From Clostridia bacterium (GTDB lineage: Bacteria; Bacillota; Clostridia; Oscillospirales; CAG-272): a DNA stretch of 64,000 nucleotides. Every line of letters starts with the position of its first letter. Position 1 is the first letter of the stretch. The translations under genes and the position numbers were made by a program. The stretch is taken from assembly GCA_017461945.1 (NCBI GenBank), contig JAFTSB010000061.1, positions 1,966 through 65,965 of the forward strand. The letters run 5' to 3'. Shown one piece after another: positions 13,637 to 21,959 of this stretch. Under the pieces are notes generated by a model that was given only the letters and a program-made list of their open reading frames with translations, did no database searches and was not told the origin of the DNA.

Positions 13637-13665
13637 TTGAAAATTTATTGGCCTTGCGGTATAAT
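13637..13665 (+). promoter_or_regulatory. sigma-A-like promoter of the sipW locus
   Basis: TTGAAA (13637-42), a 17-nt spacer, then TATAAT (13660-65). A 7-bp inverted repeat GACAAAT/ATTTGTC lies just upstream. Confidence 0.5.
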
Positions 13666-13763
13666 GATACTACATATATATTATGGGAAAGGGGATACTA
13701 TACCCAAAAATCGACCCTTTTCGTGATATTCCTTCATTTTAGCAAGAAAAGGAGCAAAACGGC

Positions 13764-14303
13764 GTGTCGCAACAAATCAAACGGGTTTGGAATATGGTCA
13801 CCACCATCTTTGTGGTGCTGATCGTTCTGCTGGCCATCCTGCTTGTGGGTGTTCGCTTGGTTGGCATCAAGCCCTATACCGTTCTTTCCGGCTCTATGGA
13901 GCCCACCTACCACGTCGGCTCTCTGATTTACGTAAAAGAGGTTGACCCCCTCACCCTGCAGGAGGGCGACCCCGTCACCTTTATGTTAAACGAGAACACC
14001 GTGGCCACCCACCGCATTATCGAGCGTATTCCCGATGAGACCGATCCTACCGTGGTTCGCTTCCGTACACAAGGCGATAACAACGATACCCCCGATGGCG
14101 AGCTGCTGCATTGTAAAAATGTCATTGGCAAGCCGCTCTTTACCATTCCGTATCTTGGCTATCTGGCCAATTACATCCAAAACCCTCCCGGCCGTTTCGT
14201 GGCCTTGGGCGCGTGCGTGTTATTGCTGCTGGCTGTGATCTTTTCCGGCTCTGACAAAAAGACCGCACCCAAAGAGGAGACCACCCAAAACGGAGAAGGC
14301 TAA
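13764..14303 (+). CDS. sipW: signal peptidase I, ER/archaeal (SipW) type
   Basis: SGSMEP (Ser nucleophile) and ATHRI (His) boxes with N- and C-terminal TM segments, as in B. subtilis SipW. GTG start follows AGGAGC. Confidence 0.85.
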   Translation: MSQQIKRVWNMVTTIFVVLIVLLAILLVGVRLVGIKPYTVLSGSMEPTYHVGSLIYVKEVDPLTLQEGDPVTFMLNENTVATHRIIERIPDETDPTVVRFRTQGDNNDTPDGELLHCKNVIGKPLFTIPYLGYLANYIQNPPGRFVALGACVLLLLAVIFSGSDKKTAPKEETTQNGEG

Positions 14304-14423
14304 CGCAAGTCTTTCCGGGCGCTCCCCTTAACATGGGGAACGATCACACTTGGTGACAAGCCGCAAGGCTTTCACATAAATTTTGATCCCAACTAAAAAT
14401 TTTAAAGAAAGGAGAAAAAAGCA

Positions 14424-15014
14424 ATGAAAAAGAAGATTCTGGTAACCCTGTCTGTTATCGCTTGCGCACTTCTGCTGGTTGTCGGCTCCGTCGTCGGTAC
14501 CTTTGCGTATCTGACTTCTAATGCCACTGTTACCAACACCTTTACTGTTGGTAATGTTGCAATTACTATGGATGAGACCGATGTGGATAATTCTACCCCC
14601 GATAAAGATCGTGATACCGTTAACAGCTATAAGCTTATGCCTGGTCATACGTACACCAAGGATCCGGAAATTCATGTGGATCCTGCAAGTGAAGATTGCT
14701 GGTTGTTTGTCAAGCTTTCTGACGGGCTGGAGTCTATTCAGGCTGAGGATACCGTTGAGCAGCAGCTGATCAAAAATGGCTGGTCTTGCATTGATGAGGC
14801 TAACAATATTTGGGCTCATGAGAATGTCGCAAGCGCTAACGATGATGTGAAAGTTTTTGATTACATTAAAGTCAAGGGCGATGTTAACAGCGAAGATTTG
14901 GCTGCATACAACAATGCAAAAGTCAGTGTGGTTGCGTATGCAATTCAGGCTGATGGCTTTACCTCTGCTGAAGCTGCATGGAACGCAGCTAAGACTGCCG
15001 GCGATATCGCCTAA
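14424..15014 (+). CDS. TasA/BsaA-like secreted subunit 1 with SipW-cognate signal (196 aa)
   Basis: MKKK, then a hydrophobic span, then GTFAYLT, then TNTFTVGNV. C-terminal AYAIQ. AAAGGAG RBS. Confidence 0.75.
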   Translation: MKKKILVTLSVIACALLLVVGSVVGTFAYLTSNATVTNTFTVGNVAITMDETDVDNSTPDKDRDTVNSYKLMPGHTYTKDPEIHVDPASEDCWLFVKLSDGLESIQAEDTVEQQLIKNGWSCIDEANNIWAHENVASANDDVKVFDYIKVKGDVNSEDLAAYNNAKVSVVAYAIQADGFTSAEAAWNAAKTAGDIA

Positions 15015-15033
15015 TTGCTAAGGAGAACAAACG

Positions 15034-15609
15034 ATGAAAAAGACATTGATTACAATTCTTGCAACCGTTTTGGTATGCTGCTGCATAGTTGGCGGAACTC
15101 TTGCTTGGTTGACCGACAAGACCGAAACTGTCACTAACACCTTTACTGTTGGTGATGTTAATATTAAGTTGACGGAAACCATTAATGAAACGGAAACGGA
15201 TGTGTCTGATGCTGCTGCAACGGCTAATTTCAAGATGATTCCCGGTAACGAGATTCCTAAGGATCCTAAAGTGACTGTCTTGAAGGGCAGCGAAGCTTGC
15301 TGGGTTTTTGTGAAGATCGTGGAAACTGACACCAAGAACTTGATTGATTGGGAAATTGCTGAAGGTTGGACTCTTGTAGAGAGTTCTAATGGTACTAGCG
15401 TGTATTATCGCGCCGAGAATGATCTTTCCGATAGCGCTAACGATGGCACTTCTTACTCTGTGTTGAAGGGTGATAAGGTTACTGTAAGTAGCACCAATTT
15501 GGTAAAGGGTGAAACCGAAAAGCCTACCTTGGTGATTACGGCTTACGCTGTTCAGCAGGCAAATCTCACTTTCAATCAGGCTTGGGAGCAAGCCAAAACT
15601 CTTGGTTAA
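15034..15609 (+). CDS. TasA/BsaA-like secreted subunit 2 (191 aa)
   Basis: GTLAWLTD, then TNTFTVGDV. C-terminal AYAVQ. It shares PG..(Y/I).KDP and ..CW.FVK with subunit 1. It starts 19 nt after the previous stop. Confidence 0.75.
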   Translation: MKKTLITILATVLVCCCIVGGTLAWLTDKTETVTNTFTVGDVNIKLTETINETETDVSDAAATANFKMIPGNEIPKDPKVTVLKGSEACWVFVKIVETDTKNLIDWEIAEGWTLVESSNGTSVYYRAENDLSDSANDGTSYSVLKGDKVTVSSTNLVKGETEKPTLVITAYAVQQANLTFNQAWEQAKTLG

Positions 15610-20400: not shown

Positions 20401-20416
20401 GAAAGGGGGGAGCGCA

Positions 20417-20986
20417 ATGTCTTCTCCGAACAAACGGAAAATGAACAAAAAGCTTATCATCATGATTGCATGCATATCCTTAGTGACATGCATTGCTGTT
20501 GGCTCCACCCTTGCTTTTTTGGTGACCAAAACCGAAGCTTTGCAAAACATTTTCAGCCCTTCGCATGTTAGTGTTGAGGTCTCTGGCACTACAGCCACCA
20601 ACATTGGTGAAACCAATGCTTATTTTCGCATGACGGCAGTGGTTACGGTGCAAAGTACAACCGACCCCAATGTATATTACGGCACGCCCTTTGTGTGGGG
20701 AACGGACTATACCGGCTCCTATTCAAATGTGGGGGATTGGGTGCTGAATGAGGATGGATATTTTTACTATCCTACTGCGGTGGCTGCCGGAAATTCGGTG
20801 ATTGTTCCTACGTTGAACGTAGAAATTATCAATGCCGATTTTGCGGTTCCTGCAGGCTATCAGGTGGTCGTGCAATATCTTGTCACCGCCATTCAGGCTT
20901 GGCCTAACAGTGCAATTGAGAATGCTTGGGGTGGATCTGTTTCCAATGGAGTATACACTCCTTCTAATCCTCAAACATTGTCATAA
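20417..20986 (+). CDS. SipW-signal-type secreted protein 5 (189 aa)
   Basis: Basic N-terminus, a hydrophobic span, then GSTLAFLVTKTEALQNIF. GYFYYP motif and terminal TAIQ. GGGGGGAG RBS. An alternative ATG lies at 20441. Confidence 0.6.
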   Translation: MSSPNKRKMNKKLIIMIACISLVTCIAVGSTLAFLVTKTEALQNIFSPSHVSVEVSGTTATNIGETNAYFRMTAVVTVQSTTDPNVYYGTPFVWGTDYTGSYSNVGDWVLNEDGYFYYPTAVAAGNSVIVPTLNVEIINADFAVPAGYQVVVQYLVTAIQAWPNSAIENAWGGSVSNGVYTPSNPQTLS

Positions 20987-20994
20987 CTAAAATG

Positions 20995-21023
20995 CGCCGC
21001 ACGCCCAAGGACGTGCGGCGTTT
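20995..21023 (+). terminator. hairpin with a short T-run between subunit 5 and the Lgt-like gene (weak or partial terminator)
   Basis: CGCCGCACG / CGTGCGGCG 9-bp stem (20995-21003 / 21012-21020) followed by TTT. Confidence 0.4.
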
Positions 21024-21053
21024 GGAGTATTTCCCCCATAGAGAGGAAAATTT

Positions 21054-21959
21054 ATGAAAAAACGAATTTATGTTTTACCGTGCGTTCTGGCAGGCGTGAT
21101 GCTGATGCTTGCGGTCTTATTGATTTGCCAAGCTCTTTTTGCCAAAACCATGCTGCCTTTTGTAGGCCACGGCGGACGGTACAATAAACTTTTTAAAAGC
21201 CTTTTAGGCATCCCACATCACTATTTTGTGATGCTGCTGGGTGCCATTATCTCCGTTGCAGTCGCTTTTTTGCGCCGAAAAAAATACGGATTGAACGTTT
21301 GGCAGACCGCTTTGTTCGGCATTGTATTTCCATTTTGGGCTTGGATCGGTACTAAGTGTTTGTTTGGATTTGAAAAGGTGATCGTGCAAAAAAACTTTTT
21401 GGCGTTTGACCCGTCGGGCCAGTCGCTATACGGAGGCATCATTTTTGCTGCCCTATACGTTGTAGTGATGTCGTTTTGCTTTAAAAAAAGCAAGGTAATG
21501 CTGTTTGATTTTGTGGCACCACTTGGAATGATTGTGGTGACCGGCGCACGTTTGGCTTGCTTTTTCTCTGGTTGCTGTGGCGCACCGCTACGCTATGTGG
21601 GCGTAAGGGCTTTTTATCTCCCTGTGCAGCTTTTTGAGGTGGTTTTAGATCTTCTGCTTTTGGCATTTTTGCTGTATTTGGAGCAAAACAAACTGACTTG
21701 GGGGCAAGAAAATGAAAAGGGAAGCGCTTGGAACGGCAATCAAGCGTTGATTATCATGGTTTGTTATGGTACTTACCGTTTCATCCTTGAATTTCTGCGC
21801 GATAATCCTCGATTTTGGTTGAATATGTCTTTGCCGCAGTATTATTCGATTATTTGCGTTGCCATTGGCACGATTGTACTATTCAAACGCAAACAAGCCC
21901 ACGATTGGATGCTGGAAAAGCAGAAGCGGCACGCGCAAAAGCACCCTGGGCGGCGCTAA
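21054..21959 (+). CDS. prolipoprotein diacylglyceryl transferase (Lgt) family membrane protein
   Basis: Polytopic protein. YGGIIFAAL ... DFVAPLGMIVVTGARLACFFSGCCGAP corresponds to the HGGL ... D.IAP..G.GR.GNF.NGE core of Lgt. Confidence 0.6.
   Translation: MKKRIYVLPCVLAGVMLMLAVLLICQALFAKTMLPFVGHGGRYNKLFKSLLGIPHHYFVMLLGAIISVAVAFLRRKKYGLNVWQTALFGIVFPFWAWIGTKCLFGFEKVIVQKNFLAFDPSGQSLYGGIIFAALYVVVMSFCFKKSKVMLFDFVAPLGMIVVTGARLACFFSGCCGAPLRYVGVRAFYLPVQLFEVVLDLLLLAFLLYLEQNKLTWGQENEKGSAWNGNQALIIMVCYGTYRFILEFLRDNPRFWLNMSLPQYYSIICVAIGTIVLFKRKQAHDWMLEKQKRHAQKHPGRR

Follow-up and report, generated by a model that had tools for sequence, protein, structure and literature searches.

An eight-gene locus in the genome of an uncultured gut Clostridia bacterium (positions 13764–21959 of the window, the 64,000-nt stretch of DNA that was analysed) is, on balance, likely to encode a sortase-independent, SipW-dependent donor-strand fibre of the TasA/BsaA type, with differentiated subunits and a giant adhesin-like protein. 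All eight genes lie on the + strand, and a check of the ORFs found each of them in the order and at the coordinates given by a first-pass annotation of this DNA, including the short spacing of genes A, B and C (19 nt between A and B, 21 nt between B and C). The features of the locus are as follows:

13637–13665, + strand: promoter match TTGAAA-17-TATAAT, sigma-70-like, 5' of sipW
13764–14303, + strand: sipW, ER/archaeal-type signal peptidase I, 179 aa, GTG start
14424–15014, + strand: subunit A, 196 aa, with a SipW-type signal, donor strand TVTNTFTVGNV and a TasA-like core
15034–15609, + strand: subunit B, 191 aa, a paralogue with the same donor strand as A (V33-x-N35-x-F37)
15631–16368, + strand: subunit C, 245 aa, a paralogue with an A-type donor strand and a larger core
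16378–16399, + strand: GC hairpin of 9 bp, 3' of gene C, lacking a U tract
16572–17240, + strand: subunit D, 222 aa, a BsaA/TasA-like but divergent paralogue, its N-terminal region long
17260–20400, + strand: giant protein, 1046 aa, with an ordinary Sec signal and an array of Ig-like pilin/adhesin-type domains, lacking LPXTG
20417–20986, + strand: subunit E, 189 aa, the most divergent of the five paralogues
20994–21021, + strand: hairpin between the genes for E and the Lgt-like protein, GC-rich and followed by UUUGGAGUAUUU
21054–21959, + strand: Lgt-like protein, 301 aa, with an additional transmembrane segment at its N-terminus and a shortened head region

The signal peptidase is a member of the ER/archaeal-type family, scoring 104.5 bits in HMM searches with TIGR02228 (cut-off 51.85) and 105.5 bits, under the cut-off of 190, with the Bacillus SipW equivalog NF046067. 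Its translation carries SGSMEP and THRI, and AGGAG lies 8 nt 5' of the GTG codon. The promoter sequence, which is a consensus match only, agrees at 11 of 12 positions and is the top + strand match of the region; an Rfam scan of the sipW leader yielded neither a riboswitch nor any other Rfam element. The first-pass annotation had placed all eight genes behind this promoter; the match is there, but a single transcript is not established, because hairpins and a 203-nt gap interrupt the locus. The hairpin already annotated downstream of C is real, though unexceptional given its composition (−22.9 kcal/mol, z = −1.4); hairpins occur at the equivalent position of related loci, and this one may determine how strongly the genes before it are expressed relative to those after it. 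The second hairpin, absent from that annotation, is stronger (−23.1 kcal/mol, z = −3.8) and may partially uncouple expression of the Lgt-like gene. As had been reported, none of the eight proteins contains an LPXTG-like motif, and no convincing sortase signature was found anywhere in the window.

The five small proteins, A to E, are mutually homologous and carry SipW-type signals. Each of the motifs described for them earlier was found: the one shared at the N-terminus, the TNTFTVG strand and the A.Q motif at the C-terminus. B and C are 40% and 30% identical to A, respectively. The profile searches proposed in the first-pass annotation placed A, B, C and D above the cut-off of 19 for the SipW-cognate signal model TIGR04088 (28, 32.5, 37.7 and 20.8 bits). 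All five small proteins remained under the cut-off of TIGR04090 (43.4 bits for D, versus 60), and matches to PF12389 were marginal, covering only the first ~50 residues of A–C and reaching 21.6 bits for D (cut-off 22.5). E matched none of the HMM models searched, yet hhalign aligned it end to end with the A family (97.7%, E = 2.4e-12). The AF2 model of A (pLDDT 90.6) predicts a TasA-like fold in which the segment following the signal, residues 26–46, is unstructured in the monomer. Its top PDB matches by Foldseek were 8AUR (the TasA fibre), 9H8B and 7UEG, all of them donor-strand fibres and the last two archaeal; in absolute terms the match to TasA is weak (E about 0.01, TM 0.36). Together with the TIGR04088 scores, this match bears out the assignment of the small proteins to the TasA/BsaA superfamily.

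PDB sequence searches with the A-family profile, or with D alone, did not find TasA. These marginal links at the sequence level, and the family name Peptidase_M73, could be taken to mean that the small proteins are secreted matrix or spore-surface proteins that do not polymerise, or else camelysin-like proteases, and that the locus is a loose set of SipW substrates with no appendage. We consider this very improbable, since each of the top three structural matches is a polymerising donor-strand fibre, conservation within the mature proteins is highest in the strand that follows the signal, and no metalloprotease motif was seen. The name 'peptidase' itself probably derives from a misidentification of CalY (PMC11580942).

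Sequence conservation agrees with the fibre reading. Pilins typically conserve their assembly elements and vary their exposed surfaces; comparison of the loci shows this pattern, with 65–96% identity in the signal peptide and donor strand and 26–49% in the cores. Residues N38, E51, K79, A173 and Q175 of A are invariant among 122 A-family sequences. The Asn/Glu/Lys set is kept in A–D, whereas E keeps Asn only: its donor-strand N44 is invariant, and the positions matching E51 and K79 of A are unconserved. The V-x-N-x-F spacing of the strand equals that of BsaA, B having identical numbering; in BsaA, the strand residues are V33/N35/F37, and N35 is locked to K74 with E56 (PMC11580942). The set retained in A–D is compatible with a BsaA-like isopeptide lock. 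The TKD motif of TasA contains a Lys as well, and TasA is not known to form an isopeptide bond, so that invariance of the Lys is non-specific evidence for such a lock.

Sequence searches recovered 4,880 relatives of A, and neighbourhood comparison, also proposed earlier, showed the gene set conserved together in at least six related loci. We additionally sampled four unrelated A-family loci (L012, L013, L016 and L017). L012 and L013 were colinear with the window locus, L017 was colinear to the end of its contig, and L016 contained the same parts in another order. B-type orthologues were present in all four, D-type in L012, L013 and L017, and E-type in L013 and L016. Loci with A subunits only about 54% identical still share orthologous A, B, D and E classes, and paralogue classes and gene order are conserved across distant loci.

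Two claims on novelty did not survive. It is outdated to say that the characterised relatives have essentially a single subunit and lack a large co-encoded exoprotein: the C. perfringens sipW-bsaA-bsaB-bsaC locus encodes BsaA, one or two BsaB-like paralogues and BsaC, a 70-kDa vWA protein, and in B. cereus TasA and CalY co-assemble into heterofilaments. Calling the architecture undescribed was overstated, given the size of the A family and the colinearity of three of the four sampled loci. Operons with several BsaA/TasA paralogues, SpaA-domain/LPXTG proteins and sortases are in print (Kivimaki et al., 2025 preprint; PMC11580942, Fig. 9C), and heteropolymers were proposed for them in the same work. 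The architecture is thus common and already published, and the fibre/adhesin reading itself is reasonable.

Whether the paralogues share one fibre is less straightforward. A could form a homopolymer, with B–E as variant subunits, making separate fibres or providing antigenic or phage-evasion diversity, and the giant as an independent, BsaC-like cargo. There is precedent in C. perfringens, where BsaA oligomers contain no BsaB and BsaC is secreted separately (PMC11580942). The B and C cores are mosaic between loci, suggesting diversifying exchange: the signal peptide of B is 88–96% identical and its core 35–41%, with an outlier of 79% to L001, and the core of C is 74% identical to its L004 orthologue and 26–29% to the others. 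D is dispensable in four relatives (L001, L006, L008 and L014), which contain a conserved non-coding stretch of ~520 nt in its place, and no TasA-like domain was detected in the giant. We nevertheless regard this reading as unlikely. Classes A, B, D and E are ancient and keep the same order in distant loci, which is unexpected for simple variants; the donor Asn is present in all five proteins and Lys/Glu are lost in E alone, which argues for differentiated roles; and wherever the contig of a colinear locus extends past the giant gene, the very next gene is that for E.

The giant is a secreted array of pilin-type Ig-like domains, as modelled by AF2 (pLDDT 65). Its Foldseek matches were the sortase pilins Spy0128, PitA and GBS52 together with CnaB repeats (E 1e-7 to 1e-5), in line with the adhesin role first suggested for it. 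A search of 5.8e9 proteins returned just 11 homologues. The conserved C-terminal module of the giant ends in K-W-L-F-G, with W1027 and F1029 invariant, and matches the exact C-termini of the otherwise unrelated giants of L012 and L013. A (D/E)T.Y.A.(W/F) motif directly follows the signal peptide in eight of the 11 homologues and lies about 15–20 residues further in in P0005, P0006 and P0011; its alignment to a donor strand had a probability of only 12%. In sister clusters, giants of 672–1073 aa bear true SipW-type signals and donor strands.

In the differentiated fibre that we favour, subunits would be exported by Sec, each held in the membrane through its own signal peptide, and each newly exported subunit would receive in its groove the free N-terminal strand (TVTNTFTVG) of the subunit before it. 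SipW would cleave after strand insertion, and growth would therefore take place at the base of the fibre, as has been proposed for BsaA. A covalent lock may form in A–D between the Asn of the strand and the Lys of the groove (N38 and K79 in A), with E51 as the catalytic Glu, which would parallel N35-K74/E56 of BsaA. A is the candidate major subunit and would form the bulk of the shaft, with B, C and D inferred to be minor or variant subunits; E, which would serve as a strand donor but has neither the Lys nor the Glu, is probably a distal adaptor of the giant to the shaft.

The Lgt paralogue scored 69.4 bits with PF01790 (cut-off 24.9), 30.7 with TIGR00544 (cut-off 118.9) and 62.9 with NF000778 (cut-off 334). 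It retains the clostridial-type catalytic signature: R166, C169, C174, C175, Y238, R242, E246 and R249 are invariant and common to the paralogue and bona fide clostridial Lgt. Most likely, it would move diacylglycerol from phosphatidylglycerol onto a component of the system, tethering the structure to the membrane; BsaA oligomers are reported to be anchored in the membrane and not in the peptidoglycan (PMC11580942). The paralogue occupies the same operon position in L003, L004, L006, L008, L014 and L015, and all Lgt-bearing loci have common flanking synteny, so that its co-conservation with the cluster may simply reflect common descent.

It is possible, if doubtful, that the paralogue is no fibre anchor and serves giant exoproteins (in export, membrane retention or modification) or unrelated lipoproteins, being present here only through the 1046-aa protein or shared ancestry. 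L001 has the fibre genes and no Lgt gene, a hairpin separates E from the Lgt gene, and the locus holds no canonical lipoprotein substrate. In metagenomes, accessory-type Lgt genes lie 3–70 nt from giant ORFs of four BLAST-unrelated families, and in most of these loci no SipW- or TasA-like gene was detected in the sequence scanned with narrow, clade-built HMMs and a strict regex; against this, such genes lie within 8 kb in four metagenome Lgt loci. The window-type giant family, moreover, has no invariant Cys for a thiol-directed transferase; the E family has none either. The signal peptide of A has a Cys14 after V-I-A that conforms to a lipobox, although within the segment that SipW should remove. 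In the window clade this Cys co-occurs with the Lgt gene, whereas A of the one close relative without that gene has V-V-V-C instead. Finally, the Lgt position of L013 is taken by a 238-aa protein (PQTG, transmembrane segment and KRK) plus a sortase. The unusual feature of the locus is thus an Lgt paralogue where a sister locus has a sortase, and the lipid tether of the anchored fibre that we prefer would replace the LPXTG-type protein and sortase of that locus.

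All eight co-directional genes that the first-pass annotation had read as a SipW/TasA-type fibre locus were found as open reading frames on the + strand, and the promoter proposed for them was recovered as the top consensus match on the + strand of the region. The GC hairpin assigned to the 3' side of gene C also exists, but it lacks a U tract and is ordinary for its composition. The features of the locus are as follows.

13637-13665, + strand: promoter match, TTGAAA-17-TATAAT
13764-14303, + strand: sipW, signal peptidase, 179 aa
14424-15014, + strand: subunit A, 196 aa
15034-15609, + strand: subunit B, 191 aa
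15631-16368, + strand: subunit C, 245 aa
16378-16399: hairpin 3' of gene C
16572-17240, + strand: subunit D, 222 aa
17260-20400, + strand: giant secreted protein, 1046 aa
20417-20986, + strand: subunit E, 189 aa
20994-21021: stronger hairpin, in the gap between E and the Lgt-like gene
21054-21959, + strand: Lgt-like gene (Lgt paralogue), 301 aa
22049-22286: tRNA-Pro and tRNA-Leu genes (region listed as 22003-22286), downstream of their own promoter-like site

Searches of the leader and of the C-D gap for riboswitches or known RNA elements found none. The G+C content is 40-48% in the cluster (14001-22000 of the window) versus 52-55% in its flanks, and the cluster abuts the two tRNA genes. Its chromosomal setting is also unlike that in the relatives, whose clusters are followed by Amidohydro_2 and oxaloacetate decarboxylase genes. 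The cluster may have been acquired or relocated. Just 3' of tRNA-Leu, a near-perfect palindromic hairpin (22266-22348) hit a microRNA model on both strands with scores under the gathering threshold; it probably serves as the terminator of the tRNA operon. A 405-aa antisense ORF overlapping B and C (14989-16206, - strand) is, most likely, no gene but an artefact of codon composition.

The product of the first gene passed the model for ER/archaeal-type signal peptidase I (TIGR02228, 104.5 bits, cut-off 51.85) and contains both catalytic boxes on which its initial identification had relied, SGSMEP with the Ser (residues 42-47) and ATHRII with the His box THRI (residues ~81-86). It scored below the cut-off of the Bacillus equivalog NF046067 (105.5 bits, cut-off 190); it is a member of the family of Bacillus SipW but, under the NCBI rule, not its orthologue.

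In searches with family models, the five small proteins gave a mixed picture. The SipW-dependent-type signal model TIGR04088 (cut-off 19 bits) was matched by four of the five (A, 28; B, 32.5; C, 37.7; D, 20.8 bits); E gave no match, although its signal still aligns to the A family in hhalign comparisons. Matches to PF12389 (Peptidase_M73, threshold 22.5 bits) were marginal and confined to the first ~50 residues for A, B and C (22.7, 22.5 and 23.8 bits), under the threshold for D (21.6 bits) and absent for E. The BsaA family model TIGR04090 (cut-off 60) was not reached by any of them (D, 43.4; C, 22.2; A, 18.3; E, 12.9 bits; B, none). E matches no model of the NCBIfam and Pfam libraries, yet hhalign shows its homology to the A family from end to end (97.7%, E = 2.4e-12). 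Pairwise identity is 30-40% among A, B and C, and ~20% for D and E against A.

The AF2 model of A, built from 122 sequences of its family, reached a pLDDT of 90.6, with residues 26-46, right after the signal helix, as coil in the monomer. Its best PDB match in Foldseek was the TasA fibre, 8AUR, at a probability of 0.96, E = 0.011 and a TM score of 0.36, which is weak in absolute terms; the next matches were Pyrodictium cannulae (9H8B) and Pyrobaculum bundling pili (7UEG), the three best having E values of ~0.01-0.02 and all three being donor-strand polymers. TasA was not found when the PDB was searched by sequence, either with the profile of the A family or with D on its own, the similarity being too low for such searches. 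The model thus predicts for A a TasA-like fold, matched weakly in absolute terms, whose N-terminal donor strand is unpaired in the monomer.

A, B and C share a V-x-N-x-F pattern in this strand with the spacing of V33, N35 and F37 of BsaA, the residue numbers of B being identical. N38, E51 and K79 of A are invariant among the 122 A-family sequences and may, going by published residue numbers, correspond to N35, E56 and K74 of BsaA. The donor-strand Asn is kept in all five paralogues, and E has lost the positions of the Lys and Glu of A. The donor strand of TasA carries an Ala (DATFA) where the window subunits have this Asn, so that a covalent lock would be possible in the window fibre; the C-terminal strand motif of TasA, EATQ, is identical to that of subunit D.

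Whether the gene set is conserved together had been put forward as a check, and the order sipW-A-B-C-(D)-giant-E-Lgt indeed recurs in the close-relative loci L003, L004, L006/L007/L015, L008 and L014; in another relative, L001, the cluster lacks the Lgt gene. Among 185,579 species genomes, only two related loci were found, in a sheep-colon Clostridia MAG and an Oscillospiraceae MAG. Four relatives lack gene D. Their C and giant genes are separated instead by ~520 nt of conserved non-coding sequence (L006 5760-6282, L008 5848-6369, L001 9463-10000 and L014 3467-3982), which opens with nested GC hairpins and could act as a leader, encode an sRNA or contain an internal promoter. Upstream of sipW, relatives carry a second TasA-like cluster (L001 435-6830, L003 264-5976, L006 1-3081 and L008 10-3231) that encodes its own S26-like peptidase of ~260 aa, with a VQTDSMS motif, as well as giants (672-1073 aa) whose N-termini consist of a true SipW-type signal plus a donor strand. 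The window is devoid of this cluster and has GH4 and beta-lactamase-like genes at that position.

The wider A family comprises 4,880 matches (E ≤ 0.001). Four unrelated A-family loci were sampled. Two of them, L012 and L013, are colinear with the window, with A-, B- and C-like and D-type subunits followed by a giant of 2374 or 1576 aa. An E-type subunit comes next after the giant in L013, and the L012 contig stops just past the giant; L017, whose A-family member has a lipobox-conforming signal, is colinear up to the contig end inside its giant, and L016 contains the same parts in another order. In every colinear locus whose contig extends past the giant, the E gene lies directly 3' of it. This common gene order and these shared classes in distant loci indicate that the paralogue classes are old and maintained. 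In L012, a 212-aa ORF (12188-12826; N-terminus MNTLIDLTGKRFGKLVV...) without similarity to the subunits lies between the C-like and D-type genes.

Between loci, identity within A-C amounts to 65-96% for the signal peptides and donor strands and to 26-49% for the cores, with mosaic exceptions. The B core (15034-15609) is 79% identical to that of L001 and 35-41% to those of other loci, and the C core (15631-16368) is 74% identical to that of L004 and 26-29% to the others; where these cores are mosaic, the signal peptides stay 72-96% identical throughout. This pattern suggests either recombination or diversifying selection acting on exposed cores.

The giant, for which an exact-match lookup gave no record and a homologue search gave the MAG locus tag IJY50_08455, has an ordinary Sec signal and is beta-rich. 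Its AF2 model resembles sortase pilins and adhesins, including Spy0128 T-antigens, PitA, GBS52 and Cna B repeats (Foldseek E 1e-7 to 1e-5), and the test for a CnaA/CnaB-type Ig-like array gave matches to 8F70, 7W6B, 6N0A, 3PHS and 1D2P (E 1e-7 to 4e-6) with a mean model pLDDT of only 65. The protein is rare, with 11 homologues among 5.8e9 proteins, and has neither a C-terminal transmembrane segment with a basic tail nor an LPXTG motif. The pattern [LIVSN]P.[TAS][GNSA] was absent from all cluster proteins and no plausible sortase was found in the window, in agreement with the initial view of a system free of sortase and LPXTG.

Giants are nearly wholly different between locus types, sharing a C-terminal module of ~100 aa that ends in W-L-x-G; in alignments, the module from the window coincides precisely with the C-terminal ends of the giants in L012 and L013. 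The window giant and its homologues carry the invariant C-terminal motif K-W-[LF]-F-G (20335-20349, residues 1026-1030), of low pLDDT and followed by a short variable tail, in place of which the L012 and L013 giants have W-L-D-G/D; this motif could be a docking or sorting signal. When read by eye, the CnaB-like C-terminal module of the window giant is without the Lys and Asn found at the matching L012 positions. At the other end, a (D/E)T.Y.A.(W/F) motif stands directly after the signal peptide in 8 of the 11 homologues and ~15-20 residues further in for the remaining three; in the window giant it precedes a low-confidence linker. No invariant Cys was found in the window-type giant family or in the E family.

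We rejected a hidden TasA-like acceptor domain in the giant, because BLASTP, HMM and hhalign comparisons found none; the sole weak hhalign alignment comprised the signal peptide and post-signal motif (probability 12%). A C-terminal donor strand on the giant (STTNTVTKS, resembling TNTFT) was also discarded, as the tail is not conserved and only K-W-[LF]-F-G is.

In BsaA of C. perfringens, the post-signal strand (V33, N35, F37) enters the next monomer and an N35-K74 isopeptide bond, which needs E56, is formed; its oligomers behave as membrane-anchored, and growth at the fibre base, with SipW cutting after strand insertion, has been proposed (Kivimaki et al., PMC11580942). The matching spacing of the donor strand, the invariance of N38, E51 and K79, the Asn kept in all five paralogues, and the residue losses and gene position of E together favour a BsaA-like fibre growing at its base. 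A would then form the shaft, with B-D as minor or variant subunits, and E would be a distal adaptor that donates its strand and cannot receive the covalent lock. The giant would lie at the distal end, attached perhaps via its (D/E)T.Y.A.(W/F) motif, which is the weakest step of the model, given the hhalign probability of 12%. Overall, the evidence leans towards the locus encoding a SipW-dependent, multi-subunit fibre system of the TasA/BsaA type, accompanied by an adhesin-like giant.

The closest characterised system is sipW-bsaA-bsaB(-bsaB')-bsaC of C. perfringens (Obana 2020, PMC7395162; Kivimaki 2025 preprint, PMC11580942). In both loci a SipW gene stands first, several TasA-like paralogues come next, and a large secreted protein outside the TasA class follows; they also share the V-x-N-x-F donor-strand spacing and an available Asn/Glu/Lys set; BsaA and BsaB from strain 13 lack LPXTG, as do the window subunits, and BsaA fibres are reported to be membrane-associated. 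Conversely, the window has five paralogue classes, versus two or three in C. perfringens, with all of A-E below the BsaA-family cut-off (best, 43.4 versus 60 bits), and an extra paralogue, E, after the giant gene. Its large protein is a pilin-type Ig-domain array, instead of a vWA protein, its Lgt paralogue lies where C. perfringens has an adjacent sortase gene, and, in contrast to C. perfringens, no type IV pilus genes were seen near the locus.

Next closest are tapA-sipW-tasA of B. subtilis and sipW-tasA-calY with CapP of B. cereus, in which two paralogues can co-assemble (PMC9674648, PMC10151520, PMC13082335). They share with the window SipW-processed subunits, N-terminal donor-strand complementation, which is proposed for the window, and a common subunit fold, with 8AUR as the best PDB match. 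The window differs by its larger number of paralogue classes, its co-encoded giant and Lgt paralogue, and the lack of TapA or CapP homologues; none of the eight proteins matched the TapA/YqxM models of NCBIfam and Pfam at E ≤ 0.1, so that the early statement that TapA is missing still holds. The fold of the giant matches the pilins and tip adhesins of sortase pili (SpaA, Spy0128, PitA type; Foldseek E ~1e-7), whose overall logic of shaft, accessory subunits and large adhesin is similar, and the terminal module of the sister locus L013 likewise comprises a sortase, together with a PQTG-anchored protein. Nevertheless, the window lacks sortase, LPXTG and pilin-motif evidence, and its shaft is TasA-like, not made of CnaA/CnaB pilins.

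By these comparisons, the earlier premise that characterised relatives use essentially one subunit is out of date, and the suggestion that the architecture might be undescribed went too far. C. perfringens has two or three paralogues and B. cereus two that co-assemble, and the 2025 preprint already contains multi-paralogue operons with SpaA-domain or LPXTG neighbours together with the idea of a heteropolymer (PMC11580942). The window system is thus a divergent, expanded member of the TasA/BsaA class; what is new here is the replacement of sortase by an Lgt paralogue, the donor-only E paired with a giant, and the link between accessory Lgt genes and giants. Our literature search found no SipW/TasA-type system linked with an Lgt paralogue.

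The membership of the last gene product in the Lgt family was upheld by PF01790 (69.4 bits versus 24.9, residues 58-277), with scores under the equivalog cut-offs of TIGR00544 (30.7 versus 118.9) and NF000778 (62.9 versus 334), both of which are passed by the clostridial housekeeping Lgt proteins P0039, which sits in a housekeeping context, and P0036. Residues R166, C169, C174, C175, Y238, R242, E246 and R249 are invariant and common to clostridial Lgt proteins passing the equivalog cut-offs, and the paralogue retains the equivalents of E. coli R143, Y235, R239 and E243. We considered a changed active site (N146 to Cys, the E151 region to CC and H103 to Tyr) and rejected it, because the same motif occurs in equivalog-passing clostridial Lgt proteins from housekeeping contexts. 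This shared R-x-G-C-F-x-x-G-C-C plus Tyr indicates that the paralogue keeps the catalytic signature; moreover, since clostridial Lgt departs from the E. coli residues, catalytic-residue rules derived from E. coli do not transfer to the clostridial clade. GCF..GCCY and Tyr, at the positions of N146/E151 and H103 of E. coli Lgt, were observed in P0039, P0036, P0042, P0038 and loci L018-L020 (8001-8774).

Housekeeping clostridial Lgt (NF000778 type, e.g. P0039) and the paralogue also have in common the Y/R/E/R block, P-x-Q-L and the Tyr at the H103 position. Nevertheless, they are only 21-27% identical, and the paralogue starts with an additional transmembrane segment (~45 residues, with FVGxGG conserved) and is without the ~13-residue insertion that follows the CC motif of housekeeping Lgt. 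Their contexts differ likewise, an appendage/giant-protein locus as opposed to housekeeping genes.

An exhaustive profile search for accessory Lgt yielded 117 clusters at E ≤ 1e-30. In a metagenome scan, accessory Lgt genes adjoined same-strand giant ORFs of 860-2427 aa in 10/10 accessory clusters, typically 3-70 nt apart and often overlapping. Conversely, housekeeping-like, low-scoring Lgt matches showed no adjacency of ≤ 100 nt to giant ORFs, and at four housekeeping-like Lgt loci a large ORF lay ~780-850 nt away. The Lgt-adjacent giants form four BLAST-unrelated families, and the accessory Lgt plus giant gene pair appears to be uncharacterised. This general pattern, also seen on human-gut contigs, could point to a dedicated biogenesis step for very large surface proteins.

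As to a substrate, the signal peptide of A (V-I-A-C14) is the only one that fits a lipobox, and its Cys precedes the site where SipW is predicted to cut. This Cys14 comes after V-[IV]-A in 6/6 Lgt-carrying loci of the window clade, which share synteny and are not, therefore, independent observations; the one close relative without the Lgt gene has V-V-V-C, and most of the wider family has L-x-L-C. In L013, the position of the Lgt paralogue is taken by a 238-aa protein (PQTG, transmembrane segment and KRK) and a sortase. Our best guess is that the paralogue provides a dedicated lipid-tethering step for the appendage or its giant protein, and we regard tethering of the fibre system by lipidation as a tentative proposal, with somewhat less than an even chance of being right. 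More speculative, and improbable in its entirety, is a scheme where a dedicated Lgt clade is an unrecognised partner of giants and SipW/TasA fibres in Clostridia, here lipidating a fibre component, such as Cys14 of pre-A, to give a heteropolymeric pilus a diacylglyceryl base, with donor strands and isopeptides as its locks and the giant borne at its tip via E.

If true, this would be a third tethering route for Gram-positive appendages, in addition to sortase and TapA, and would be the counterpart, in Gram-positive cells, of the lipoprotein-based pathway of type V pili. The type V pili of Bacteroidota (FimA/Mfa1) reportedly have lipoprotein-precursor subunits from which a protease frees the strand, the anchor subunit staying lipidated, and are the nearest conceptual precedent for Lgt-dependent lipidation coupled to protease-triggered strand exchange. 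They involve a gingipain protease, an outer-membrane envelope, another fold family, the housekeeping Lgt and canonical lipoboxes, and the comparison with the window implies no homology. Outside B. subtilis, where BsaA oligomers, for one, have no known anchor, the locus offers candidates for the start, capping and cell retention of TasA/BsaA-type fibres: the donor-only E with the pilin-like giant would be a candidate distal end, and the Lgt paralogue, at the position of the L013 sortase module, a candidate proximal tether. With ~4,900 relatives, and the loci sampled coming from gut and other metagenome assemblies, such fibres may be common among uncultured Clostridia as organelles for adhesion or biofilm formation.

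Pairs of accessory Lgt and giant genes were observed in loci L021-L058 (e.g. L026 7968-15505, L040 7992-14770 and L043 36-5332) and in L010 (5826-10831). One large family of Lgt-adjacent giants, on human-gut contigs, is marked by the motifs LYCWGYI...WRGG...QYYVQNIE, and the database protein P0163 (580 aa) is a tandem fusion with two accessory Lgt-like domains in one polypeptide.
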